DNA from: Clostridiales bacterium
GTDB lineage: Bacteria > Bacillota > Clostridia > Acetivibrionales > JBDMZA01
Reading direction: 5' to 3'
DNA length: 32,826 nt
Assembly: GCA_039770155.1 (NCBI GenBank)
Contig: JBDMZA010000014.1
Location: forward strand, 1 to 32,826
Shown here: one piece after another, positions 380 to 32,826 of the stretch
Layout: the number at the start of each line of letters is the position of its first letter
Numbering within the stretch: position 1 is the first letter of the stretch
Position numbers and translations under genes: made by a program
Notes under the pieces: model-generated
What the model was told of the DNA's origin: nothing
Database searches by the model: none
Seen by the model: only the letters and a program-made list of their open reading frames with translations

Positions 380-1420
380 TTAAATTAAAATGCTACCAAA
401 AAGATTAAAGATAGTACCTGTTATAATAATTCCTATAATCACTATAACTGCAAAAATAATTAATAATTTTGTTTTAACAACTTTTTTTAACATTACCATA
501 GAAGGCAAGGATAAAGCTGTAACACTCATCATAAAAGCTAATGCTGTTCCTATTCCAACATTCTTTGCTACAAGAGCCTCTGCAATGGGAAGTGTTCCAA
601 AAATATCTGCATACATAGGAACACCTACTAAAGTTGCAATAAATACTGAATACCATTTATCTTGTCCAAGTACAATTGATATAATTTCTTCTGGAACCCA
701 ATTATGTATTAATGCTCCAATTCCAACTCCTATAAGTATATATATCCAAACCTTTTTTATAATACTTAAAACCTGATCTTTAGAGAAAACTATTCTATCT
801 TTTACAGATTGTTTTTGTATACCTGTTTCATTCATTTTGTTTTCAAACACGAACTTTTCAACATAATTTTCCAGCTTCATTTTACTTATAATAGTTCCAC
901 CGATAACTGCTAGTACAATACCCAATAAGACATAAGAAAAAGCAATTTTCCAATTAAAAATACTTGCAAGAAGCAATACTGACGCTAAATCAACAAGAGG
1001 TGATGATATTAAAAAGGAAAATGTAACGCCTATTGGAAGACCTGCGCTTGTAAATCCAATAAATAAAGGTATAGACGAACATGAACAAAAAGGTGTAACA
1101 GTCCCCAAAAGAGCTCCTATCAAATTTGCATTGAATCCGTTATATTTACCCAGTATTTTTCTTGTTCTTTCAGGAGGAAAAAAACTTTGTACATATGAAA
1201 TAGAAAAAATAAGTACAATAAGTAATATAAAAATTTTTATTACATCATAAATAAAAAAATGTATACTACCTCCTAATTTATTATTCATATCAAGTTTTAA
1301 TATATCTTCTACAAAATTTTTTATTATATTACTTAACCATTCCATTTTAAGTATTTGATCATTTATAATTCTAAATATATTCAAAAAAAATCCCTCCCAT
1401 CTATTATTAGTTACTACCAT
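380..1420 (-). CDS. Multi-pass membrane permease of the ArsP/DUF318 (PF03773-like) type
   Basis: 346-aa highly hydrophobic ORF with the TPFCSCSSIPLF cysteine motif typical of this permease family. It sits between an ArsR regulator and a thioredoxin-like gene. The start is uncertain: a TTG at 1384 preceded by GGGAGGG is an alternative. Confidence 0.75.
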   Translation of the reverse strand: MVVTNNRWEGFFLNIFRIINDQILKMEWLSNIIKNFVEDILKLDMNNKLGGSIHFFIYDVIKIFILLIVLIFSISYVQSFFPPERTRKILGKYNGFNANLIGALLGTVTPFCSCSSIPLFIGFTSAGLPIGVTFSFLISSPLVDLASVLLLASIFNWKIAFSYVLLGIVLAVIGGTIISKMKLENYVEKFVFENKMNETGIQKQSVKDRIVFSKDQVLSIIKKVWIYILIGVGIGALIHNWVPEEIISIVLGQDKWYSVFIATLVGVPMYADIFGTLPIAEALVAKNVGIGTALAFMMSVTALSLPSMVMLKKVVKTKLLIIFAVIVIIGIIITGTIFNLFGSILI

Positions 1421-1431
1421 TACTTTAAATT

Positions 1432-1740
1432 CTATAAAGAATTCTTTATTTCTTCTATTTTTATCAGTACAATTTTTTCAGCCAATTCAATCATCTCATA
1501 AACTTCTTTGTTTATAATCGAATAAATTACCTTAGAACCTTCCTTTTTACTTTCTACAATACCTTGGTTCTTTAAAACTGATAAATGTTGTGAAGTATTA
1601 GATTGTTCAGAATCTAATTGAGGTAAAATATCACAAACACATATAGGTCCATTCTTTAAAAGGTTAATAATTTTTATTCTTGTAGGGTGTGCTAAAGCTT
1701 TAAATACATATGCTATCAACTGATTTTTTTTATAAGACAT
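1432..1740 (-). CDS. ArsR/SmtB-family metalloregulatory transcriptional repressor
   Basis: 102 aa with a winged-HTH signature (ALAHPTRIKIINLL ... CVCDI ... SQHLSVLKNQGIV). AGGTGA RBS lies 4 nt before the ATG. Confidence 0.85.
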   Translation of the reverse strand: MSYKKNQLIAYVFKALAHPTRIKIINLLKNGPICVCDILPQLDSEQSNTSQHLSVLKNQGIVESKKEGSKVIYSIINKEVYEMIELAEKIVLIKIEEIKNSL

Positions 1741-1754
1741 AATATCACCTCGTA

Positions 1755-1788
1755 TTTTAGCATATTATAATTTTCTAATATGCTAAAA
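1755..1788. promoter_or_regulatory. Perfect 13-bp inverted repeat, candidate ArsR operator
   Basis: TTTTAGCATATTA (1755-1767), an 8-nt spacer, then TAATATGCTAAAA (1776-1788). It lies directly downstream of the -10 box and upstream of the arsR RBS. Confidence 0.6.
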
Positions 1789-1790
1789 TA

Positions 1791-1819
1791 ATTATAGTCC
1801 TAAGATCAATATTTGTCAA
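1791..1819 (-). promoter_or_regulatory. Consensus sigma-70 type promoter of the arsR operon
   Basis: On the minus strand: TTGACA (1819-1814), a 17-nt spacer, then TATAAT (1796-1791). Confidence 0.7.
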
Positions 1820-1991
1820 CTACATAATCATTCTTTAGATCTCCTAATTGAGAATAAAACTAATTATTTAATAGATTCTTTCAATTTCGAATAAATATGT
1901 GTAATTACTTTTTCAAATATGAAAATTTAAAACAAACACAAATCAAAGTATTATTGATTTTTAGATATTCCAATTATAGTTTGCATAACTT

Positions 1992-2020
1992 TTGCCATAT
2001 AATTAAACATAGTATATAAT
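1992..2020 (+). promoter_or_regulatory. Candidate promoter upstream of the ATP-grasp leader
   Basis: TTGCCA (1992-1997), a 17-nt spacer, then TATAAT (2015-2020). Confidence 0.5.
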
Positions 2021-2047
2021 ATAAGTAGATAAATTTTTTATTAGGCG

Positions 2048-2109
2048 ATGTGCCTTAAAATAAATTGATAAAACTTTTATTAATTTATTTTAAGGCACAT
2101 TGTTTTTTA
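2048..2109 (+). terminator. Long hairpin plus T-tract: leader attenuator or small-RNA terminator
   Basis: 19-bp perfect stem: ATGTGCCTTAAAATAAATT (2048-2066) pairs with AATTTATTTTAAGGCACAT (2082-2100). It is followed by TGTTTTTTAT. It lies about 30 nt downstream of the candidate promoter and 65 nt upstream of the ATG at 2175. Confidence 0.5.
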
Positions 2110-2174
2110 TTTGATTATTCCTTCCACAAAATAGTATTTACCTCTAATAATTCTAAGAAAGAAGGATAATAACA

Positions 2175-3188
2175 ATGAAAAAAGATGTACATATTGAATT
2201 TATTGCAACAGATATTGATAGTCTTGCACTAATGGGGTTTGGCTCAATTGAAAATTGTAAGAGTGTTTTTAATTGTTTATCAAAAGAATACTCTTATGTT
2301 AATTTCAATATAGTTAGAAATGAAGGTGATTTAGAAAACATAGCTTCTAGAAAACCTGATTTAATATTTACTGGTATAAAATATGTGGTTTTCGACAAAA
2401 TCAAAAAACACAAAATATGGATATCTGATTTTATGGAAAAAGCTAATATAAATTATACAGGCTCTGGTAAAGAAGCTATACTACTTGAGTATGATAAAAG
2501 TTTAGCTAAAAAAACAATATCTAATTTTGGCATAAAAACAGCACCTTATTTTATTTCTAATTCAAGTTTAACTAAAAACAACTTACCTATACCATTTCCT
2601 TTATTCGTAAAACCACTACACGAAGGTGATGGAAATGGCATTGATAAAGATTCTGTTGTATATGATTTTAAATCATATCAAAAAAAAGTTGATAGTATCT
2701 ATAAATTATATAACCAGCCTTCAATGGTTGAGAAATACATTATAGGTAGAGAATTTACTGTTTCAATAATTGAATCTGACAATGGCACTTTTAATATAAT
2801 GCCTGTGGAATTAATCATTCCAGATAAAAATCCTTTAAATAGAATATTGGGATATAGCGCAAAATCTGAAAACAAAGAGTCTGTAGTTAAAATCACCAAT
2901 AATGATATATTAAAACATATTACTTTTATTGCAAAAAATTCATTTATAGCTCTAGGAGCAAGAGATTATGGAAGAATAGATATTTTAATGGATAAAGATA
3001 ATAATCCATATTTTTTAGAAGCAAATCTGGTACCTGGTATGACAAAACGATTTAAACAAGATGATTCCAGTTATTTTCCAAGGGCATGTTATCTAAATAA
3101 CAATATGACATACCATGAAACAATTATTAAAATAACAGAAACTGCTCTTGAAAGAAATCAAAATTTAAAAATTAGAAAAAGCAGTTAG
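2175..3188 (+). CDS. ATP-grasp ligase of the D-alanine--D-alanine ligase family (atypical N-terminus)
   Basis: 337 aa with C-terminal ATP-grasp motifs (FPLFVKPLHEGDGNGI, EKYIIGREFTVSIIE, RIDILMDKDNNPYFLEANLVPGM). It lacks the canonical Ddl N-terminal GGxSxE motif. GAAGGA RBS. Confidence 0.7.
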   Translation: MKKDVHIEFIATDIDSLALMGFGSIENCKSVFNCLSKEYSYVNFNIVRNEGDLENIASRKPDLIFTGIKYVVFDKIKKHKIWISDFMEKANINYTGSGKEAILLEYDKSLAKKTISNFGIKTAPYFISNSSLTKNNLPIPFPLFVKPLHEGDGNGIDKDSVVYDFKSYQKKVDSIYKLYNQPSMVEKYIIGREFTVSIIESDNGTFNIMPVELIIPDKNPLNRILGYSAKSENKESVVKITNNDILKHITFIAKNSFIALGARDYGRIDILMDKDNNPYFLEANLVPGMTKRFKQDDSSYFPRACYLNNNMTYHETIIKITETALERNQNLKIRKSS

Positions 3189-3305
3189 CCAATAAAATGG
3201 TATAATAGTAATAACTAGTTTTTTTATTATGTATTACAAAATAAAACAAGTTTATCATTAATTTAGTTTTAAAATTAATAAGCTTGTTAGATGAGGAGTT
3301 TATTT

Positions 3306-3599
3306 ATGAAAGAGCAGATTTTCAACGGAATAGATAAAAGTAAACTTGTTAAAGAATTAGAGATATTAAAACACGAATTAAAGAAAAATAAATTACACAA
3401 AGAAGCGCTAAATATTAAAGTAGCTATAGAAGCAGCTTCAAAAAAAGAAAGTGAATTAGTATTATTTTTAGGCTACTCAGAGATGAAAGTATTAAAAGTA
3501 GCACAAATAAATAATTTATTCTATGCAGTAGAAGCATTAAAAAGATCAATTAATTATAATAAATTTTCAAATTTATCAAATTGTAATAATAACTGTTAA
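3306..3599 (+). CDS. Hypothetical small helical protein with a Cys-containing tail (SNCNNNC)
   Basis: 97-aa ORF. AGGAG (3293-3297) lies 8 nt upstream of the ATG at 3306, and an extended -10 TGGTATAAT sits at 3198-3206. No recognisable family. Confidence 0.4.
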   Translation: MKEQIFNGIDKSKLVKELEILKHELKKNKLHKEALNIKVAIEAASKKESELVLFLGYSEMKVLKVAQINNLFYAVEALKRSINYNKFSNLSNCNNNC

Positions 3600-3614
3600 T
3601 AGTTTCAACTAAAA

Positions 3615-3685
3615 GATATCAAAAAAACATACAACTATTTCCAGGTTTCCTAAAATATTTTTAGGTTAAGGAGAGCCTAAATAAT
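3615..3685. repeat. Cluster of degenerate family-B-like termini
   Basis: GATATCAAAAAAAC, GGTTTCCTAAAATA, TATTTTTAGGTTAAGG and GGAGAGCCTAAATAATAAAAA resemble the B termini GGATATCCAAAAAATAA and GGAGAACCTAAAAAATAA. Confidence 0.3.
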
Positions 3686-3720
3686 AAAAACTCTTATATC
3701 AAAATATTATAAGAGTTTTT
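3686..3720. terminator. Bidirectional intrinsic-terminator-like hairpin
   Basis: AAAAACTCTTATA (3686-3698), a 9-nt loop, then TATAAGAGTTTTT (3708-3720). It is flanked by an A-run and a T-run. Confidence 0.55.
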
Positions 3721-3783
3721 ATTATTTTATTTTATTCAAATTAAATTTATTTATCATTTTTAATTAAACCTTTGTAAGATACA

Positions 3784-3797
3784 ACCGATATATCGGT
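3784..3797. promoter_or_regulatory. 14-bp perfect palindrome upstream of the hisS promoter
   Basis: ACCGATATATCGGT, ending 7 nt upstream of the -35 box. Confidence 0.35.
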
Positions 3798-3804
3798 ATA
3801 TTAC

Positions 3805-3833
3805 TTGTTTATTAAAAAATAGGATGATATAAT
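3805..3833 (+). promoter_or_regulatory. hisS promoter
   Basis: TTGTTT (3805-3810), a 17-nt spacer and an extended -10 TGATATAAT (TATAAT at 3828-3833). Confidence 0.6.
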
Positions 3834-3889
3834 TACAAAATAAAAATTATGAGAAATTTAAATGCAATAACGAATAGGGGTTGAAAAAA

Positions 3890-5152
3890 ATGAATTATTC
3901 TCCAGTGAGAGGAATGAGGGATTTTTATCCTGATGATTATGAAAAACTAAATTATATATTTGAAACATGGAAGAGTGTGTCTCATGAATTTGGATTCAGG
4001 CAATATGATACACCAATTGTTGAATCATTAGAACTCTTAGAAAGAAAATCTGGTGAAGAAGTGTCAGATCAAATTTATAATTTTCAAGATAAATCAGGGA
4101 GAAATTTAGCATTAAGAGCCGAAATGACACCATCGCTAGCTAGATTAGTTATTACAAATAAACAATTAAAAATGCCATTGAAGTGGTTCTCTATTCCACA
4201 ATGTTTTAGGTATGAAAGAATGAGTAAAGGAAGAAAAAGAGAACATTATCAATGGAATTCAGATATAATTGGAGTTGAAAGTTCTATAGCTGAAGCTGAA
4301 CTTATAGCTGTTTCTATAAAGGCATTAAACAAATTTGGTCTGACAAAAAAAGACTTTATTATAAAATACAATAGCAGACAAATAATGCAAGAGCTTTTCT
4401 TAAATTTAGATTTAACAGAAAATGAAATGAAAACAGCTTTTTTAGTACTAGACAAAAAAGGTAAAGTATCAAATGATGTTTTAAAATCTATGTTAAAAGA
4501 GGACGGTTTAGATTCTCTAAAAATTGATAATATTATAAATCTACTAGAAATAAAAGATTTTAATGAAATTAAAAATATTTTGGGAGATTCAAAAGGTGTT
4601 TTAAATATTTTGGAGTTTAATGAATTTTTGAAATCTTTTGGTATAGAAGAAAATGTACATTATGATATTTCTATTGTTAGAGGTTTAAGTTATTATACTG
4701 GAATAGTTTTTGAAGGATTTGATATTGATCGAAATAGTAGAGCTTTACTAGGTGGTGGCAGATATGATACTTTATTTGATATTCTAGGAGAAAAAAGCAT
4801 TCCAGCTGTAGGATTTGGATTTGGAGATGTTGTTCTTGCTGATTTAATTGATGAGAAACAATTGTGGGGAAAAGAAAAATCACAAATCGATTATTATATA
4901 GGTTTTTCATCATCAGAATATGTAAATGAATCGCTTAAGATAGCAACTTCACTAAGAAATAAAGGTTTAACTGTTTATTCTGATACTTCAAAAAATAAAA
5001 TGAAAAAAATTCTTTCAAATTCAAATATGAAAAATTCAAAATTCACTATAATTCTTGATGAAAGAGAAATGGTAAATTCAGAAGTTTTGATAAAAGACAT
5101 GAATAATAAAATAAGTTCTATAAAAAAAATTAGTGATTTTTATCAATTATAA
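3890..5152 (+). CDS. hisS: Histidine--tRNA ligase
   Basis: Class II aaRS / HisRS motifs are present: RGMRDF, FRYERMSKGRKREHYQWNSDIIG, GGGRYD, and a C-terminal anticodon-binding domain. The ATG at 3890 with AGGGG upstream is preferred over the TTG at 3881. Confidence 0.93.
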   Translation: MNYSPVRGMRDFYPDDYEKLNYIFETWKSVSHEFGFRQYDTPIVESLELLERKSGEEVSDQIYNFQDKSGRNLALRAEMTPSLARLVITNKQLKMPLKWFSIPQCFRYERMSKGRKREHYQWNSDIIGVESSIAEAELIAVSIKALNKFGLTKKDFIIKYNSRQIMQELFLNLDLTENEMKTAFLVLDKKGKVSNDVLKSMLKEDGLDSLKIDNIINLLEIKDFNEIKNILGDSKGVLNILEFNEFLKSFGIEENVHYDISIVRGLSYYTGIVFEGFDIDRNSRALLGGGRYDTLFDILGEKSIPAVGFGFGDVVLADLIDEKQLWGKEKSQIDYYIGFSSSEYVNESLKIATSLRNKGLTVYSDTSKNKMKKILSNSNMKNSKFTIILDEREMVNSEVLIKDMNNKISSIKKISDFYQL

Positions 5153-5168
5153 AAACCAAAATTAATAT

Positions 5169-5210
5169 TTTAGAACAACTTAAAAAATAAAATCACATTC
5201 TTTCTTTATC
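5169..5210. repeat. Family-B-type half element abutting family A
   Basis: TTAGAACAACTTAAAAAATAAAATCACATTCTTTC resembles B left arms at 17891 (AAAAAATAAATTGTCATTCTTT) and 25261 (GAGAACCTAAAAAATAATATCACATT). Confidence 0.5.
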
Positions 5211-5316
5211 TTAGGCATAATCAAAAATTTCATAAGACAATTTTTTTCTGAAAATACCGATGGTTTAACGAATTTTCAAAAAAAGTTGACCAGTTTATTT
5301 TTTGATTCTGGCTTAA
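5211..5316 (+). repeat. Family A palindromic element, full length (reference copy)
   Basis: TTAGGCATAATCAAAAATTTCATAAGACAATTTTTTTCTGAAAATACCGATGGTTTAACGAATTTTCAAAAAAAGTTGACCAGTTTATTTTTTGATTCTGGCTTAA. It is near-identical to 19429-19533 and to the reverse complement of 1-98. Confidence 0.92.
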
Positions 5317-6787: not shown

Positions 6788-8039
6788 AGAAATAGTAGAA
6801 AGTTATAAATTAGCAAAATTGGCCTATTCCAAATACAATATTGATGTTGATAAAATATTGGATGAATTAAAAAAAATAAAAATCTCAATTCATTGTTGGC
6901 AAGGTGATGATGTAAAAGGATTTATAAATAAAAATAAAGATTTAACAGGTGGAATATCAGTCACAGGAAATTATCCTGGTGCTGCAAGAAATCCTGGCGA
7001 ACTTCGAAGTGATTTAAAAAAAGCAATGTCACTAATCCCTGGAAAACACAAAGTAAATCTACATTCTATATATACTGATACTGATGAGAAAATTGACATT
7101 GATGAAATCAAACCAAAGCATTATGAAAACTGGGTAAAATGGGCTAATGAAAATGATTTGGGTCTTGATTTTAATCCTACATGTTTTTCTCACCCAAAAT
7201 CAGATGATGGTTTTACCCTAAGTCATCCTGATAAGTCAATTAGAGATTTTTGGATAAATCATTGTAAGAAAGTCAGAAAAATAGGTGAATACTTCGGTAA
7301 AGAAACTGGTAAAACTTGTATTACAAATATTTGGATACCAGATGGTTTTAAAGATAATCCAATAGACAGACTCTCTCCAAGAGTACGATTAAAAAATTCT
7401 TTAGATGAAATATTTAAAGAAAAATTAAATGAAAAATTTACATTAGATGCAGTAGAAAGCAAATTATTCGGAATAGGCTCTGAAAGTTATGTTGTGGGAT
7501 CTCATGAATTTTATATGGGATATGGATTATCAAGAAATAAGTTAATTTGTTTAGATGCTGGGCATTTTCATCCTACTGAGTCAATATCTAATAAAATATC
7601 CTCTCTTGCTCTTTTTTCAAAAGGTATATTTCTTCATGTCAGCAGACCTGTTAGATGGGATAGCGATCATGTAATCATATTAGATGATGAATTAAATGAA
7701 ATTGCAAGAGAAATAATTGTAAACAACCTTGCAGATAAAACTTTTATAGGATTGGATTTTTTCGATGCAAGTATAAATAGAGTTGCAGCATGGGTAATAG
7801 GTACTAGAAATATGTTAAAAGCATTATTAAAAACAATGTTAGAGCCTAATGAATATTTAAAAGAAATTGAATTGAATAAAGATTATACAACAAGACTTGC
7901 CCTTAGAGAAGAATTCAAATCTTATCCTTTTGGTGCTATTTGGGATTATTATTGTTTAAGTCAAAATGTACCTATAAAAGAAACTTGGCTTTCTGATATT
8001 AAGGATTATGAAAAAAATATTTTATTGAAAAGAAATTAA
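6780..8039 (+). CDS. rhaA: L-rhamnose isomerase
   Basis: 419 aa with the [11 protein letters not shown] motif. GGAGG RBS. There is an 8-nt overlap with the rhaB stop (ATGAGTAA). Confidence 0.9.
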
Positions 8040-9393: not shown

Positions 9394-9993
9394 ATGATAG
9401 ATTTTAGTAAAGAATTTGCAAAATATGATTTTTTTCATATTTCAGAAAATATTGAACTTGATATTAATATTGATTCATTATCAAATATAAAGAAAAATAT
9501 TAAAAGAATTGGAAGAGAACAAAATAATGTTGTTATCCAAATAGATGATATACATGAGATATTAGATAAATTAAATGAATCAATTTTTAATCTAAATGAA
9601 ATAAATAAATTAAAAAAAGAATTTACAATAAAAGAAGCTTGTTTTTTTAATGAAAAAGAAGAAGTAATTAATAATCTTATAGAAGTTTTAGATGAAGTGG
9701 AAAATATAATACATTTTTCCAAATTACATTTAAATAATAGCTATAGTGAGCAATTAAATATTACATGGTCTCAAATAGGTAATATAATAAAAAAAATTGG
9801 TTTAACAAGACTAGATGATATAGATAATAAATTTAATGCTGAATTAAATGTTGCAACAAAAGTTTTAGTTATTGACAACAAAGATGATAATACAATTATT
9901 GAAACATTAAATTCAGGATATATATATGAAAAGAAAATCATAAGAAAATCTAAAGTCGTTGTTAATAAAACAAGGAGTGAAATAATTGAGTAA
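9394..9993 (+). CDS. GrpE-like nucleotide exchange factor (divergent paralogue)
   Basis: 199 aa with a coiled-coil N-half, VINNLIEVLDEVENII (compare the GrpE LLPVLDNLERAL motif) and a C-terminal beta-domain pattern (FNAELNVA ... ETLNSGYIYEKKIIRKSKVVVNK). GAGGAG RBS. It is translationally coupled to an Hsp70-type ORF. Confidence 0.5.
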   Translation: MIDFSKEFAKYDFFHISENIELDINIDSLSNIKKNIKRIGREQNNVVIQIDDIHEILDKLNESIFNLNEINKLKKEFTIKEACFFNEKEEVINNLIEVLDEVENIIHFSKLHLNNSYSEQLNITWSQIGNIIKKIGLTRLDDIDNKFNAELNVATKVLVIDNKDDNTIIETLNSGYIYEKKIIRKSKVVVNKTRSEIIE

Positions 9994-10087
9994 AGTAATT
10001 GGAATAGACTTAGGTACTTCGACATCAGAAGTCTCAGTATTAGAAAATGGTAAGCCTCGCTTAATTGAAAATAATTTAGGCAGTTAA
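9986..10087 (+). pseudogene. Hsp70/DnaK-family gene remnant (first 33 codons only)
   Basis: A TTG start lies 7 nt after AAGGAG. The translation is MSKVIGIDLGTSTSEVSVLENGKPRLIENNLGS followed by a stop. This is the phosphate-1 motif of Hsp70 ATPases, and the remaining ~550 codons are absent. Confidence 0.7.
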
Positions 10088-11170: not shown

Positions 11171-11319
11171 TAAGGCAGAATCAAAAATTGTCTAACTTAG
11201 GGATATCCAAAAAATAAACTCTAATTCTCGAGTATGAATTCGCGCGATTTAAGCGAACTTCAGACGAAAAGAATTCGGTATTATTTTTTAGGTTCTCCTT
11301 ATTTTTTTATTCTGCCTTA
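11171..11319 (-). repeat. Family A short (type i) element interrupted by a complete family B element
   Basis: The outer sequence TAAGGCAGAATCAAAAATTGTCTAACT ... ATTTTTTTATTCTGCCTTA matches the 47-bp form at 8037 and 23822. Confidence 0.85.
11199..11299 (+). repeat. Family B (B1) palindromic element, full length (reference copy), nested in family A
   Basis: AGGGATATCCAAAAAATAAACTCTAATTCTCGAGTATGAATTCGCGCGATTTAAGCGAACTTCAGACGAAAAGAATTCGGTATTATTTTTTAGGTTCTCCT. It is near-identical to 23719-23822 and 32728-32826 and is flanked by TTA on both sides. Confidence 0.92.
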
Positions 11320-13975: not shown

Positions 13976-16447
13976 TTATATTCCTAATCTATTTAATCTA
14001 ATCTGTTCATTATATGTATAATTATTTACAGATTTATGACCTTTTAAAGGTATAATTTTTTCATGAATAGCATCTATTAACCATTCTGTTTGTGGAAAAA
14101 AATGATTTTCCAATTCATGAGCTGGAGTAATCCAATTTTTTGCTCCAACTACTACAGGTGGTGCATCAAGATAATCAAAAACTAATTCACTGATATTTTG
14201 TGCCATATCTTTTAAGTGTGAGCCTCTCTCACAAGCATCACTTGTAAGTAAAATCTTACCCGTTTTCTTAACAGACTCTATTACTTTTTCATAGTTAAAT
14301 GGAACAATTGATCTTGCATCTATTATTTCAGTGGAAATATTATATTTCTCTTCTAAAATTTTTGCAGCTTCTATAGCCCGATATAGAGTTGCTCCTATTG
14401 TTAAAATTGTTAAATCCTTTCCTTCTTTTTTAATATCTGGATCTCCAAATTCTACCTCATAGTAATTTTCAGGTACACCATCTTTATTAAATAATTCACC
14501 AACATCATATAGCCTCTGGCTTTCAAAAAATATAACAGGGTCTGTTCCCATTAAAGCAGAATTCAATAATCCCTTTGCATCATATGGAGATGCAGGAAAT
14601 ACAACTTTTAATCCTGGAATATGAGCACAAATAGAAGTCCAATCTTGTGAGTGCTGAGCTCCATACTTTGAACCTATTGAAACTCTAACTACAATTGGCA
14701 TTTTTATAACACCAGCACTCATAGATTGCCATTTTGAAAGTTGATTGAAAATTTCATCTCCCGCTCTTCCTATAAAATCGCAATACATTAATTCTACTAC
14801 TGCTCTACCTCCACAAATACCATAGCCAGTAGCTGAACCAACTATTGCACCTTCTGATATAGATGAATTAAATAATCTATGATATGGTAATGATTCTGTT
14901 AAACCTCTATAAACTGCAAAAGCTCCTCCCCAATCTCTATTTTCTTCGCCATAAGCAATTAATGTAGGATCAAGGTAAAACTTATCTATTAAAGCTTCAA
15001 AAAGTGCATCTCTAAAATTAAAGACCTTATTTTTAGATACAGGTTTTCCATCTTTAATACCAACTCTTAACTTAGTTTTATTTCTTTTTACCCTAGAATT
15101 TTCTTCCTTTGCAATCAGAACATCACATTTTCCATCTTCCATTTTTTCAATTTTTTCATTTGAAAACATTAATTCCCCTATTTTATCAGGTTCATTTATC
15201 ATATTAAATCGTGGTGAAACTTCGCTATCAACAGCAAGTCTACAAGCTTTAGTAATTAATTCTTTTGTATTTAAAATCATTTCTTCTGCTTTATCGCTAT
15301 TTAAAACTTTGTATTTAATTAGATCATCTCTATAACATTTTAAAGAATCTTGATCCATCCATGAATCAATTTCTTCTTTAGTTCTGTAACTTGAAGCATC
15401 TGACGGTGAATGACCAGTAAATCTATATGTTATAACATCTAATAAAACAGGTCCTCTTTTTTCTTCAATAATTTTTTTCTTTCTTTTCATAGCATCAATT
15501 ACCGCTAACGGATTGTATCCATCTATCCTTTCAGCATGTAATTGTTCAGGATTTACTCCCGCACCTACTCTGGCTAAAATATCATAACCCATTGTTTCTC
15601 CACAAGTTTGTCCACCCATTCCATACTGATTATTAAAGAAATTAAATATTAGAGGTAAACCACCTTTTAAATCATTATTCCAAAGTTTTTTATACTGATC
15701 CATAGTGGCAAGACACATTCCTTCCCATACCGGACCACATCCCATTGAAGCATCTCCAATATTTGCAATTACCAATCCTTTTTTTCTATTTACTTTTTTG
15801 TAAATAGCAGCTCCTACTGATATATCCCCTGAACCTCCTACAATTGCATTGTTTGGATATACTCCAAAAGGAGTGAAAAATGCATGCATTGAGCCTCCAA
15901 GACCATTATTAAAACCAGTTTCCTTTGCAAATATTTCTGCTAATGTTCCATAAAGTAAAAAATCAATTGCTAAATCTTTTATACTTGATTTATTTTCTCT
16001 ATCTTTTTCAACAATCTTTAAAATTTTTCCATCAAAGTAACTTTCCATTATAGAAATCAACTTATCTTCTGATAGTTTATCTATTGCAGAAAGACCTTTT
16101 GCAATTATTTCACCATGACTCCTGTGAGAGCCGAAAATATAGTCGTCCTTATTTAATATATAAGCTTGTCCAACTGCCGAAGCTTCCTGTCCTAATGATA
16201 AATGTGCAGGTCCTGGGTGATTATATTTTATACTGTTATATTCATTTGATGTTTTAATAGACATTAACATACTTTCAAATTCTCTAATAATCAGCATATC
16301 TCTATATATTCTTAAAAAATCGTCGTCACTAAAATCTGATTTTTCTTCTTCTATTGTTTTATTATATTGATTTACAGGAATATCTTTAAACTTTATAAAA
16401 CTACTTTTTCGAACTTCCTTTGGATCAATAAATTGTGATTTTGGCAT
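13976..16447 (-). CDS. 2-oxoacid (pyruvate/acetoin-type) dehydrogenase E1 component, fused alpha-beta subunits
   Basis: 823 aa. The N-half carries the TPP-binding E1-alpha motif ([13 protein letters not shown] ... NNQYGMG). The C-half resembles the E1-beta transketolase-like pyrimidine-binding and C-terminal domains. AAGGAG RBS. Confidence 0.85.
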
Positions 16448-16476: not shown

Positions 16477-16503
16477 TCGATATTATTTTTTATGTTTTCC
16501 TTA
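16477..16503 (+). repeat. Family B right-terminus remnant
   Basis: TCGATATTATTTTTTATGTTTTCCTTA resembles GGTATTATTTTTTAGGTTCTCCTTA. Its terminal TTA is the E3 stop codon. Confidence 0.5.
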
Positions 16504-19428: not shown

Positions 19429-19533
19429 TTAGGTATAATCAAAAATTTTATAAGACAATTTTTTTCTGAAAATATCGATGGTTTAACAAATTTTCAAAAA
19501 AAGTTGACTAGTTTATTTTTTGATCCTGCCTTA
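19429..19533 (+). repeat. Family A element, full length, between lipA and E2
   Basis: It is near-identical to 5211-5316. Its terminal TTA (19531-19533) is the lipA stop codon. Confidence 0.92.
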
Positions 19534-21030: not shown

Positions 21031-21092
21031 TGGAAAGCCCAAAAAATAATATCACATTTTTAAAATGTAGATTTATTTTTTTGAATATCCCT
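21031..21092 (-). repeat. Family B short form (B2 subfamily)
   Basis: TGGAAAGCCCAAAAAATAATATCACATTTTTAAAATGTAGATTTATTTTTTTGAATATCCCT. It shares AAAAAATAATATCACATTTT with 25261 and with 29332 (reverse complement). Confidence 0.75.
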
Positions 21093-23718: not shown

Positions 23719-23822
23719 TTAAGTGATATCCAAAAAATAAACTCTAATTCTCGAGTATGAATTCACATGATTTAAGCGAACTTCAGACGAAAAGAATTTG
23801 GTATTATTTTTTAGGTTGTCCT
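23719..23822 (+). repeat. Family B (B1) element, full length
   Basis: It is near-identical to 11199-11299. Differences are concentrated in the apical loop (ACATGA versus GCGCGA). Confidence 0.92.
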
Positions 23823-23869
23823 AAGGCAGAATCAAAAAATTATCTTATGAAATTTTTGATTCTGACTAA
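23822..23869 (-). repeat. Family A short (type i) element abutting family B
   Basis: TAAGGCAGAATCAAAAAATTATCTTATGAAATTTTTGATTCTGACTAA. It shares its first bases with the end of the B copy. Its far terminus contains the SDR stop codon (CTA at 23866-23868). Confidence 0.85.
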
Positions 23870-24645
23870 TACATTATTTGTCCACCTGTAACATTTACAG
23901 CTTGACCTGTCATATAACTTGCTTGATCAGATACTAAAAAAGCCATAACATTTGCTACATCATCATATGTACAGCCTCTCTTTAATGGAACTTGATCGAC
24001 ATATTTTTGTCTTACTTCTTCTTTTGTTATACCTTGATTCTTAGAATATTGCTCATAGAGACTATCAACCCAAAGAGGTGAATCTAAAAGATTTCCTGGA
24101 CAAATTGCATTTACTCTCACATTATGTTCTGCAAATTCTAAAGCAAGACTTTGTGTAAGTCCTATTCCTCCAAACTTTGCAGCTGCATATGCTGAATTTT
24201 TATATGAACCTTTTTTCCCTGATTTACTGTTAATTTGAATAATATTTCCTTTTTTATTTTTGAACATTATCTTTGAAACTGCTTTTGAACATAAAAAATA
24301 TCCCATAAGACTTACATCTATAACTTTTTTCCATTGTTCTTCTGGAAATTCATCAATTGGTTTTGCAATTAATATTGCAGCATTTGAAATTAATATATCT
24401 ATTGTATTGTACTTTTCTATAGTTTTTCTTACCATTTCATTAACATCATTACTATTTGTAACATCAACTTTAACAGCTATTGCATCATTAAATTCACTTG
24501 CTACTTTTTGAGCCAGTGTATAATTTATATCTGCTACAACTACTTTACATCCTTCTTTATTTAATCTCTTAGCTAGATATTCACCGAGTCCCTGTGCTCC
24601 ACCTGTCACAATTGCTACTTTTTCATTTAAAGATTTTTGATACAT
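23866..24645 (-). CDS. Short-chain dehydrogenase, sorbitol-6-phosphate 2-dehydrogenase (SrlD/SorD)-like
   Basis: 259 aa with TGGAQGLG. A long stretch (IIQINSKSGKKGSYKNSAYAAAKFGGIGLTQSLALEFAEH ... VPLKRGC ... VNVTGGQIMY) closely parallels E. coli SrlD as I recall it. AAGGAG RBS. Confidence 0.8.
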   Translation of the reverse strand: MYQKSLNEKVAIVTGGAQGLGEYLAKRLNKEGCKVVVADINYTLAQKVASEFNDAIAVKVDVTNSNDVNEMVRKTIEKYNTIDILISNAAILIAKPIDEFPEEQWKKVIDVSLMGYFLCSKAVSKIMFKNKKGNIIQINSKSGKKGSYKNSAYAAAKFGGIGLTQSLALEFAEHNVRVNAICPGNLLDSPLWVDSLYEQYSKNQGITKEEVRQKYVDQVPLKRGCTYDDVANVMAFLVSDQASYMTGQAVNVTGGQIMY

Positions 24646-24712
24646 ACTGGTCTCCTTTTTAATAATATAAATATATTTAATTTTGAAATATACTATAATC
24701 TCTATTTATTTT

Positions 24713-24741
24713 ATTATATAATCAATGTTGATATATGTCTA
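24713..24741 (-). promoter_or_regulatory. Candidate promoter of the SDR/PHP/dehydrogenase genes
   Basis: On the minus strand: TAGACA (24741-24736), a 17-nt spacer, then TATAAT (24718-24713). Confidence 0.4.
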
Positions 24742-24775
24742 TATATATTTATTTGTTTTGATTTATTATGTATAT

Positions 24776-24804
24776 TTGTTGTTTTTTATTTTTTACTATA
24801 TAAT
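24776..24804 (+). promoter_or_regulatory. Candidate rhaM promoter
   Basis: TTGTTG (24776-24781), a 17-nt spacer, then TATAAT (24799-24804). Confidence 0.45.
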
Positions 24805-24824
24805 GTTAATATATCAAACTCAAA

Positions 24825-24900
24825 TAAGACGGAATCAAAAAATAAACTAGTCAACACCTATTCATTTTCGAGAATGTGGATTTATTTTTTGGATATCCCA
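24825..24900 (-). repeat. Chimeric element: family A terminus and arm fused to a family B arm and terminus
   Basis: TAAGACGGAATCAAAAAATAAACTAGTCAAC is the A part. It is followed by ACCTATTCATTTTCGAGAATGTGGATTTATTTTTTGGATATCCC, which is a B1 arm and terminus. Confidence 0.8.
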
Positions 24901-24914
24901 TAGGAGGAATAGAG

Positions 24915-25229
24915 ATGTTTAGAATTGCCAGTATAATGTATGTTTATAAAGAGAAATATGTAGAATACAAAAAAAGACATGATAAATTATGGCCTGAAAT
25001 GGAAAAAACCCTAAAGGATCATGGTGCAAATAACTATTCAATCTTTTTAGAACCCAATTCAGGACAACTCTTTGCCTATCTTGAAGTAGAAAGCAAAGAA
25101 AAGTGGTCAAAAATTTCAAAAACAGACATATGTAAAAAATGGTGGGATTATATGGAACCTTTGATGGAAACTAATCCCGATAACAGCCCTAAATCAACAA
25201 ACTTAGAAGAAGTTTTTTATTTGAAATAA
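24915..25229 (+). CDS. rhaM: L-rhamnose mutarotase
   Basis: 104 aa, collinear with E. coli YiiL/RhaM as I recall it ([23 protein letters not shown] ... [17 protein letters not shown] ... EEVFYL). AGGAGG lies 7 nt upstream of the ATG at 24915. Confidence 0.85.
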
Positions 25230-25236
25230 ATTTATA

Positions 25237-25262
25237 TTAGGCATAATCAAAAATTCCATAAA
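25237..25262 (+). repeat. Family A left-end fragment truncated by a family B element
   Basis: TTAGGCATAATCAAAAATTCCATAAA matches the first 26 nt of family A. Confidence 0.7.
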
Positions 25263-25363
25263 GAGAACCTAAAAAATAATATCACATTTTTGAGAATAAA
25301 TTCCTATGTTTTAATCGAATTTCATACAGAGAGGATTTGATATTATTTTTCAGTTTCTTCTAA
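25261..25363. repeat. Family B variant (B2-type left arm) overlapping the 3' end of the OYE gene
   Basis: The left end is AAGAGAACCTAAAAAATAATATCACATTTTT. The right end GATATTATTTTTCAGTTTCTTCTAA matches GGTATTATTTTTTAGGTTCTCCTAA at 21 of 25 positions. Confidence 0.7.
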
Positions 25364-26551
25364 ATAACACTTTGTAGGTTTTCCTGAATCACACATAACC
25401 GCACACATATTACAATTGGTACATTTTGATTGATAACCTTTAAAATCAATAATCTTTTCTACAAAATCATGTTCACATATAAAAGGTCTTGATAAACTTA
25501 CATAATCACAATAATTATTCGTTATTGCATCAAATATTTCTGTTTCTGATCTAAAACCGCCAACACAAATTATAGGTATTTTTGTTAAAGATTTTGCTAT
25601 TTTTGCATACTCTAAATTATATACAGGTTTAAAAGATTTAATTTTAGATTTTAAAAATGGTAATAGAACTGCACTTTTCATGTTATTTACCATATTAGGG
25701 CTGTATTTCAGTATTGGATTATACTTCATAATTGTTTTCAAAGGAACTCCACCTCGGAATATATTTAAAGCAAAATCCATTGTTCCATTACTGATTTCAA
25801 TAGCATCAACTTCTTTTGAATCTAAAAATTTAATAAGATTTGTAAACTGTTGCTTACTAAAGCTATTAAAATAATCGTCATCGCTACTTATCTTAACCAA
25901 TATAGGAAAATATTCACCACATTTTTCTCTTATTTCATCAATAATCATACTTAAAAAGTTTATACCTATTTTTGTATTAATATCAACCCCAAATTCATCT
26001 TCTCTATTATTTATTGAAGATAGAATTGATTGATGCACTAAATATCCATGTCCTGATTGTATCTGTATACCGTCAAATCCTGCTTTTTTAGCATAAAAAG
26101 CAGATTCACCAAATTTTTTAACAATAAATTTAATTAAATCTTTATTTAAAATCATTGGCTTTTCATTAAAGTAAAAAGATTTTTTATTAGAGAATCCATA
26201 AACTTTAAAGCCAGTGTTAATTTTTCTTGTTTGCCTTCCTGCATGTGATAATTGAATAAAAATTCTACAACCATAATTATGAACTTTATCAGTAACTAAA
26301 GAAAAATGATGAATCATCTTCTCTTCATCAATAGCAGACTGTCTTTGTTGAATTGATTTACCTTCTTTTGATACATATGAGAATCCTGTAATTATAGCTC
26401 CCACACTACTTTTAGCAAGTTTTTCATAGTATTTTATATATTCTGGCAAAGGTATCCCCTCTAAATCACACATCCCTTCATATGTAGCAGAACGAAAAAT
26501 TCTATTCTTTATAAAGCATCTGTTTATTTTTGTCAATTCAATTATTTCCAA
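25343..26551 (-). CDS. Old-yellow-enzyme family NADH:flavin oxidoreductase with a C-terminal Cys cluster
   Basis: 402 aa with FRSATYEG, IQLSHAGRQT, a GHGYLVHQ TIM-barrel OYE motif and a C-terminal CTNCNMCAVMC ... C motif. TTG start 7 nt after AAGGAGAGG. Confidence 0.8.
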   Translation of the reverse strand: MEIIELTKINRCFIKNRIFRSATYEGMCDLEGIPLPEYIKYYEKLAKSSVGAIITGFSYVSKEGKSIQQRQSAIDEEKMIHHFSLVTDKVHNYGCRIFIQLSHAGRQTRKINTGFKVYGFSNKKSFYFNEKPMILNKDLIKFIVKKFGESAFYAKKAGFDGIQIQSGHGYLVHQSILSSINNREDEFGVDINTKIGINFLSMIIDEIREKCGEYFPILVKISSDDDYFNSFSKQQFTNLIKFLDSKEVDAIEISNGTMDFALNIFRGGVPLKTIMKYNPILKYSPNMVNNMKSAVLLPFLKSKIKSFKPVYNLEYAKIAKSLTKIPIICVGGFRSETEIFDAITNNYCDYVSLSRPFICEHDFVEKIIDFKGYQSKCTNCNMCAVMCDSGKPTKCYLEETEK

Positions 26552-28193: not shown

Positions 28194-28266
28194 TAAGGAT
28201 AGGCTGAAAATTAAGTTTCACAAATTCACACTCGAAAATTAAGGTTTATTTCTTGATTATGCCTAA
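28194..28266. repeat. Chimeric element: degenerate B1 body ending in a family A terminus
   Basis: TAAGGATAGGCTGAAAATTAAG ... AAATTCACACTCGAAAATTAAGGTTTATTTCTTGATTATGCCTAA. The right arm is collinear with 13131-13168, but the last ~12 nt are the A terminus. Confidence 0.75.
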
Positions 28267-29331: not shown

Positions 29332-29378
29332 GTGATCCTAGGATTTTGAAAATGTGATATTATTTTTTGGCTTTTCTA
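29332..29378. repeat. Family B short form (B2 subfamily)
   Basis: The reverse complement GAAAAGCCAAAAAATAATATCACATTTTCAAAATCCTAGGATCAC parallels 21033-21070. Its end contains the GNAT stop codon (CTA at 29376-29378). Confidence 0.6.
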
Positions 29379-32727: not shown

Positions 32728-32826
32728 TAAGGGATATCCAAAAAATAAACTCTAATTCTCGAGTATGAATTCACATGGTTTAAGTGAACTTCAGACGAAA
32801 AGAATTCGGTATTATTTTTTAGGTTC
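32728..32826 (+). repeat. Family B (B1) element, full length, truncated by the window edge
   Basis: It is near-identical to 11199-11299 and 23719-23822. Confidence 0.92.

Follow-up and report, generated by a model that had tools for sequence, protein, structure and literature searches.

The segment at 24825–24902, directly upstream of rhaM, was probably an immobile fossil in which the stumps of two MITEs, one from each of the families called A and B here, had been fused by internal deletion; it would thus be an ordinary product of decay, and not a dedicated regulatory device. It lay in a window of 32,826 nt, by which we mean the whole stretch of DNA that was analysed, and consisted, in direct reading, of TAA GACGGAATC AAAAAATAAACTAGTCAAC ACCT ATTCATTTTCGAGAATGTGGATTTATTTTTT GGATATCCC ATA. 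The initial annotation had described this region as a composite of an A left end and a B right end upstream of rhaM, and alignments of both halves bore this out.

All parts of the segment are given on the plus strand. The left part (24825–24855; TAAGACGGAATCAAAAAATAAACTAGTCAAC) matched the left end of family A; it aligned, column by column, with the left ends of ten further A copies and diverged from them right after GTCAAC. In other copies from the source metagenome (run X1), the canonical TTTTTTAAAAA continued after the position equivalent to 24855. This part began with a TAA flank (24825–24827), positioned by the nine-nucleotide rule explained below and without a match to the flank at the other side, ATA; it is possibly one copy of the 3-bp target-site duplication of the A insertion. 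There followed the A left end proper (24828–24855), comprising the terminal 9-mer GACGGAATC, an A-run and then TAAACTAGTCAAC; two base changes separated the 9-mer from the A consensus, GGCAGAATC. The right part (24860–24899; ATTCATTTTCGAGAATGTGGATTTATTTTTTGGATATCCC) had 85% identity with the family B right end and 81–85% complementarity with three B left ends (at 11200, 23720 and 32727), and was alignable with all B right arms. It contained a B right arm and a B1-type terminus (in reverse complement, GGGATATCC AAAAAATAAATC), its nearest sub-variant being found at 21062–21091, and the ATA flank of this B end (24900–24902) shared a base with the start of the Shine-Dalgarno sequence. The halves were separated by a filler of four bases, ACCT (24856–24859), unrelated to A or B; likeness to other copies ended at 24855 and restarted at 24860.

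A core common to both families had also been proposed. For the window at large this held, as the 13-nt core CAAAAAATAAACT occurred 15 times with at most one mismatch, against 0.85 occurrences expected, and none of 100 shuffles gave 15. Within the chimera it held only in part: the exact 13-mer was found in the A arm alone (24836–24848, plus strand), while the corresponding stretch of the B arm, CAAAAAATAAATC, agreed at 11 of 13 positions.

Copies of the two families ranged from 40 to 143 nt and none had an open reading frame of its own; canonical copies folded well as single strands (best z about -4 to -8). Family A elements were about 99 nt long with GGCAKAATCAAAAA at both ends, and there were internally deleted forms of 41–42 nt that kept both ends. 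The reference full-length A copy (19432–19530, 99 nt, minus strand) was flanked by TTA/TTA, and the duplication on its inner side supplied the lipA stop codon. Family B elements were about 98 nt long, had a B1 end (GGGATATCCAAAAAATAAACTCTAATTCT) and a B2 end (GGAGAACCTAAAAAATAATACC), and carried the terminal inverted repeats GGGATATCCAAAAAATAA and GGAGAACCTAAAAAATAA; the reference full-length copy, with B1 at left, B2 at right and TTA/TTA flanks, was located at 11200–11298 on the plus strand. B1/B1, B2/B2 and short B2/B1 variants were also present, among them a short element at 21032–21091 with B2 at left, B1 at right and TAT/TAT flanks. The A, B1 and B2 termini followed one layout, i.e., a 3-nt flank, nine family-specific bases starting with GG, and then A5-7 TAA. 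The most similar pair of termini was A-left and B1, which had CAAAAAATAAA in common and the same 9-nt spacing to the flank. A second mixed-end element was identified at 28197–28263 (plus strand), in which a B-type left terminus (GGATAGGCT) and B arm were combined with an A-type right terminus (GATTATGCC) between perfect TAA/TAA flanks; here, the switch from B to A adjoined the shared core. One or two other X1 contigs, with a terminus that may or may not be of the A type, reached across the corresponding region at 85% likeness or more.

Copies of A and B were frequently adjacent or nested. The reference B copy, with its TTA/TTA duplication, sat within a short A copy (11174–11317), in the loop region of the latter; B adjoined A at 23723–23866, with one TAA in common; half of an A element lay beside B at 25237–25359; and further neighbouring or nested copies occurred at 5169–5315. 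At 25237–25261, the B copy interrupted the A arm in the same loop region (CATAA) as in the nesting at 11174–11317. An A copy and a B-like copy were also observed about 70 nt apart (2262–2521) on L141, a metagenome contig with a GH9 cellulase; thus, A and B co-occur outside the organism of the window too.

Flanking bases were compared for 23 two-ended copies, 16 from the window and seven from metagenome contigs, by a boundary rule of our own choosing that was applied uniformly: nine bases separate the flank from the A-run in all three kinds of terminus, and the flank was read 10–12 nt outside the A-run. By this rule, 12 of the 23 copies had direct repeats (TTA/TTA, TAA/TAA and, once, TAT/TAT), one had an inverted repeat, and 10 had neither, most of these being one base away from an exact duplication. 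The excess of direct over inverted flanks was significant (binomial p = 0.0017), and the observed count was reached in 59 of 50000 flank shuffles. A further A copy, on L141 and outside the 23, had direct TAA/TAA flanks by eye. Since the flanks were direct rather than inverted, they were interpreted as target-site duplications and not as the outer part of a longer inverted repeat. Neither TA (mariner-like) nor TTAA duplications fitted the flanks. For the chimera itself, the flanks (TAA/ATA) differed at two of three positions and so did not form a duplication.

Short non-coding copies, terminal inverted repeats, target-site duplication and many dispersed copies were therefore all in evidence, and A and B behave as MITEs, that is, as families of non-autonomous DNA transposons that are related to each other. 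The type is previously undescribed but conventional. A REP/REPIN-RAYT system was considered and rejected; such systems lack target-site duplication, have a conserved 5' tetranucleotide in their REP units and are associated with a RAYT gene, whereas duplications were present here and the window was without a RAYT or Y1 transposase domain. The 3-bp TTA/TAA (TNA) duplication of the IS5/PIF-Harbinger group was found in both families. PIF/Harbinger elements and their Tourist MITEs are characterized by just such a 3-bp TTA/TAA duplication, next to inverted repeats of 14–25 bp, together with an IS5-like DDE transposase (PMC2213677).

Comparison with the contig L155, which was found through its homologue (67% identical) of the window's E3 dehydrogenase, provided a view of the locus without the elements. 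GC content was alike (26.4% in L155, 26% in the window), and the gene order was that of the window, with rhaM followed, divergently, by SDR, PHP, ADH, LplA, LipA, E2, E3, E1 and DeoR. No copy of A or B was present in L155, which was the only syntenic relative found. Its operon spacers measured 13–52 nt, while five of the six comparable spacers in the window measured 53–188 nt and were filled with repeats; the LplA-LipA spacer of the window was only 9 nt. Given the same gene order, the lack of A or B copies and the shorter spacers in L155, the repeats were interpreted as insertions, at a distance (67% identity for E3) too great for base-by-base alignment of the insertion points. Elements were also interposed between genes that form one uninterrupted operon in L155, a position that speaks against a role as intrinsic terminators.

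In the divergent spacer, L155 had conserved the SDR-proximal ~190 nt, including TAGACA-17-TATAAT and TTGTTG. Alignment and a promoter scan delimited the conserved intergenic block at 24646–24815; it held a minus-strand TAGACA-17-TATAAT (24741–24713) for the SDR operon, and TTGTTG-17-TATAAT (24776–24804). The chimera lay outside the block and was without a counterpart in L155, where about 290 nt of unrelated sequence took its place. A short sequence in the L155 rhaM leader (3176–3200; ATTTATTTTTTGATGATAT) resembled the B1 terminus and stood 16 nt before the ribosome-binding site. This motif, ATTTATTTTTTG..GATAT, gave a local alignment to the chimera with p of about 0.03, and contained the sole instance of the CAAAAAATAAA 11-mer in the 21 kb of L155; it may be due to chance, be a B1 remnant of great age, or serve some function as a short motif. 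In light of this likeness, the B stump of the chimera could be older than assumed, or the motif, short as it is, could have its own role.

Repeats were dense. The 26 copies and fragments in the window covered 1941 nt, equal to 5.9% of its length and 39% of its intergenic DNA, and were found in 18 of the 24 spacers of at least 30 nt. The TAA or TAG flanking an element served as the stop codon of rhaA (8037–8039), lipA (19531–19533), SDR (23866–23868), E3 (16501–16503) and GNAT (29376–29378), and the open reading frames of DeoR (13169) and an oxidoreductase (25343) ran on into an element for a few codons. The contig (32,826 nt) began and ended inside repeat copies (1–23 in A, 32728–32826 in B). 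As these ends and the breaks of Logan contigs lie in repeats, the elements limit the assembly of such genomes. Summed word depth in X1 was about 3000 for A-left and about 1000 for B-right, against 8–10 for unique sequence (100–370 times single copy), which implies some hundred copies or more in the X1 community.

Beyond the source metagenome, a scan of metagenomes with a degenerate core pattern proved too loose, its 120 or more loci being mostly chance matches. Among the matches listed, family A copies of 87–95% identity were present on at least seven unrelated metagenome contigs, and A-bearing contigs encoded proteins of Clostridia type (a GH9 cellulase with CBM30, VanW and DUF4015). Words of the A element were detected in some twenty runs from peat, soil and sediment; one of these, a peat metatranscriptome, yielded a 210-nt contig with a whole A copy. 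There was no A or B copy in the viral contigs and plasmids searched. For the GH9 of an A-bearing contig, the two best homologues were on contigs L156 and L157, which had no repeats and were of unrelated GC content; a literature search for the core sequence returned chance matches only.

The source metagenome had also been assembled independently, and the junction within the chimera was recovered there. In the Logan assembly of run X1, a contig of 1055 nt (depth 8.2) spanned 24300–24889 with zero differences, and a second, overlapping contig covered 24863–25255 and ran on into rhaM. That this assembly spans the junction unchanged shows it to be genuine rather than misassembled. One might suspect that two contigs with repeats had been joined falsely, given the position of both window ends inside repeats and the tendency of the Logan assembly of X1 to break at repeats; yet the first contig passes from unique SDR sequence into the A arm, through the filler and 30 nt into the B arm, without any difference, the second continues into rhaM, and both were at single-copy depth, so an artefact of this kind is exceedingly improbable. 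The breakpoints (24855/24860) bear on how the junction arose. The A part keeps its core plus seven bases and the B part its core plus 20 bases; the break is therefore interior, and the four-base filler occupies it. The initial annotation had suggested recombination across the shared core, and a homologous exchange between copies of A and B through these 13 nt would draw on a core that is both shared and over-represented, and on the element at 28197–28263, which switches from a B arm to an A terminus beside the core. It is contradicted by the breakpoint map: each half of the rhaM chimera retains its own core and family-specific arm, with unrelated bases between, which a crossover in the core cannot yield, and this origin is very improbable. 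The same annotation had held that a chimera without parallel, broken away from the core, would be better explained as adjacent truncated copies. No other A-left/B-right junction was found at 80% likeness or more among X1 contigs longer than 47 nt, and this outcome favours truncated neighbours fused by deletion.

It is unlikely, too, that the chimera was a transposition-competent MITE with mixed ends, the 72-nt unit having been moved as one piece by one transposase acting on its A-left and B1 ends. These are the two ends that have CAAAAAATAAA and the 9-nt flank spacing in common, and mixed or unlike ends elsewhere in the window do have duplications (TAA/TAA at 28197–28263, TAT/TAT at the short B2-left/B1-right element of 21032–21091). 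Against this, the flanks of the chimera disagree at two of three positions, its terminal 9-mer is mutated, and the source metagenome held no second copy across the junction at the likeness given above. The mismatched flanks, the two changes in the terminal 9-mer and weak fold z-scores were instead read as signs of decay. Fusion of two neighbouring insertions is the simplest origin because adjacent or nested copies are frequent in the window. Under the fossil interpretation, A and B would have inserted side by side or one within the other; illegitimate recombination or a deletion in the interior would then have fused them, with loss of the right part of A and the left part of B, leaving the four filler bases; and the B end, having landed 2 nt before the rhaM ribosome-binding site, would have caused the relic to be carried in the rhaM leader. 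We infer the deletion from the arrangement of the remaining parts; no diagnostic microhomology was seen at the junction.

The rhaM gene (24915–25229, plus strand) encodes an L-rhamnose mutarotase of 104 aa (Pfam PF05336, E 5.3e-31), and its ribosome-binding site, AGGAGG (24902–24907, plus strand), stands 7 nt before the ATG at 24915; the B end of the chimera stops 2 nt before that site. With the conserved, promoter-bearing block on one side of the chimera and the ribosome-binding site on the other, its position makes membership of the rhaM 5' UTR plausible, and the relic would accordingly be transcribed with the gene. The candidate promoter (TTGTTG-17-TATAAT) failed a consensus scan, and promoter-like sites in the region were at chance frequency (6 found, 6.1 expected), while the candidate itself falls inside the block conserved with L155. 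None of the RNA runs searched for the rhaM locus contained it. As RNA, the chimera was predicted to fold at -12.5 kcal/mol (z -0.55), and as DNA at -8.1 to -8.9 kcal/mol (z -1.4 to -1.65); this was no better than shuffled sequence, so that 'hairpin', the term used initially, was generous, and the predicted stem left the Shine-Dalgarno sequence free. Rfam had no match anywhere in the window at the gathering threshold, and none in 24600–25000 at E up to 1, and no intrinsic terminator (a GC-rich stem with T-run) occurred in 24600–25400. Rfam, the terminator scan and gene content together led to the rejection of a riboswitch, a terminator and an integron attC site.

These observations also bear on whether the segment is a selected cis-regulatory RNA element of rhaM, such as an attenuator, riboswitch or translational hairpin, built from parts of repeats. 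Such a role would suit its place downstream of the conserved block and 2 nt before the ribosome-binding site, the short similar motif that precedes L155's own ribosome-binding site, and the capacity of MITEs elsewhere in bacteria to alter the expression of neighbouring genes (PMC4596501). It is quite improbable all the same, given that the segment had no Rfam match, folded at the level of shuffles, left the Shine-Dalgarno sequence free, and was absent from L155, where the leader has unrelated sequence instead. Most likely, the fossil is a passenger in the rhaM leader with little or no effect that depends on structure.

No transposase was encoded in the window, by domain search, or on the A-bearing contigs. 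The duplication alone points to an IS5 / PIF-Harbinger-type DDE enzyme that would act in trans. That one recognition system acts on both families had been suggested initially from the shared core; the common layout of A, B1 and B2 termini, the same 3-bp duplications and the mixed-end element at 28197–28263 with its TAA/TAA flanks are consistent with this, and a single transposase serving both families is plausible. Tourist MITEs and PIF-Harbinger elements are comparable in being small and non-coding, in having terminal inverted repeats that start with G and a 3-bp TTA/TAA duplication, and in their high copy number, and related Tourist subfamilies are likewise thought to be served by one transposase (PMC2213677). 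They are eukaryotic, and have a G(N)5GTT motif in their inverted repeats that was not seen in A or B. Bacterial MITEs derived from IS5, such as those of Porphyromonas gingivalis and the ATR of Neisseria, resemble A and B in being intergenic, AT-rich and hairpin-forming with terminal inverted repeats, in being often nested or truncated, and in that they can affect neighbouring genes (PMC4596501). The duplication of A and B was consistently 3 bp, in contrast to the irregular duplications of BrickBuilt elements (PMC4596501). The sequences of A and B are unrelated to those of the IS5-derived MITEs, and the density observed here (39% of intergenic DNA) is far higher.

Among other intergenic repeats, the BIMEs of Escherichia coli are REP-type mosaics with linkers, in which a few types of module occur in several head-to-head combinations, also inside operons; the A-left, A-right, B1 and B2 modules resemble such mosaics. 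REP and BIME sequences lack target-site duplications, which A and B carry, and are associated with RAYT tyrosine (HUH) transposases. Correia elements of Neisseria are palindromic, intergenic and about 100–150 nt long, are co-transcribed with genes, and exist in full-length and internally deleted forms; they duplicate TA rather than a trinucleotide, and their sequences are unrelated to A or B.

The host is uncultured and of a lineage that is poorly sampled or fast-evolving. Among 5.8 billion proteins, none was more than 55% identical to its HisRS (3881–5152); its E3 was nearest to Clostridia at about 60%, and its PDH-type genes shared 60–67% identity with clostridial ones. L033, the contig that carries the nearest relative of the HisRS (55%), contained no repeats; at 852–4301, it encoded a protein of 1149 aa with a Tubulin_2 domain, beside a VWA-domain protein. 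Orthologous rhaM loci in GTDB genomes numbered 31, the best being 69% identical (Bacilli), and none of the 31 had repeats; from this search, rhaM is no guide to the relatives of the host. Exact-protein look-ups for the rhaM product and the ArsP permease returned no record. Directly after grpE (9394–9993), a 30-codon open frame at 9995–10087, VIGIDLGTSTSEVSVLENGKPRLIENNLGS, resembled the N-terminus of DnaK and ended in a stop, with a SEC-C-motif gene next; it appears to be a truncated dnaK remnant. E1 (13976–16447) was a single protein of 823 aa with E1_dh, transketolase pyrimidine-binding and C-terminal domains (i.e., fused alpha and beta), an arrangement kept in L155.

A broader interpretation, offered tentatively and on balance doubtful, is that A and B (B1, B2) are interchangeable end modules of one MITE system, which, in a Clostridia-like lineage that is uncultured and of low GC content, would be mobilized by one IS5/Harbinger-like transposase. 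Elements with mixed ends, such as 28197–28263 and perhaps the rhaM chimera before its decay, would retain mobility; operon spacers would have been invaded at very high density, and several organisms from peat, soil and sediment would have acquired family A, at 87–95% identity. If this were true, new MITE families would arise by the shuffling of ends. Taken alone, the chimera matters little, but it illustrates how dense MITE populations erode into mosaics, and that the leader of a gene can consist almost wholly of MITE debris. The wider interest lies in two related MITE families with Harbinger-like duplications that fill about 40% of the intergenic DNA of the window, including the spacers of a pyruvate-dehydrogenase-type operon.
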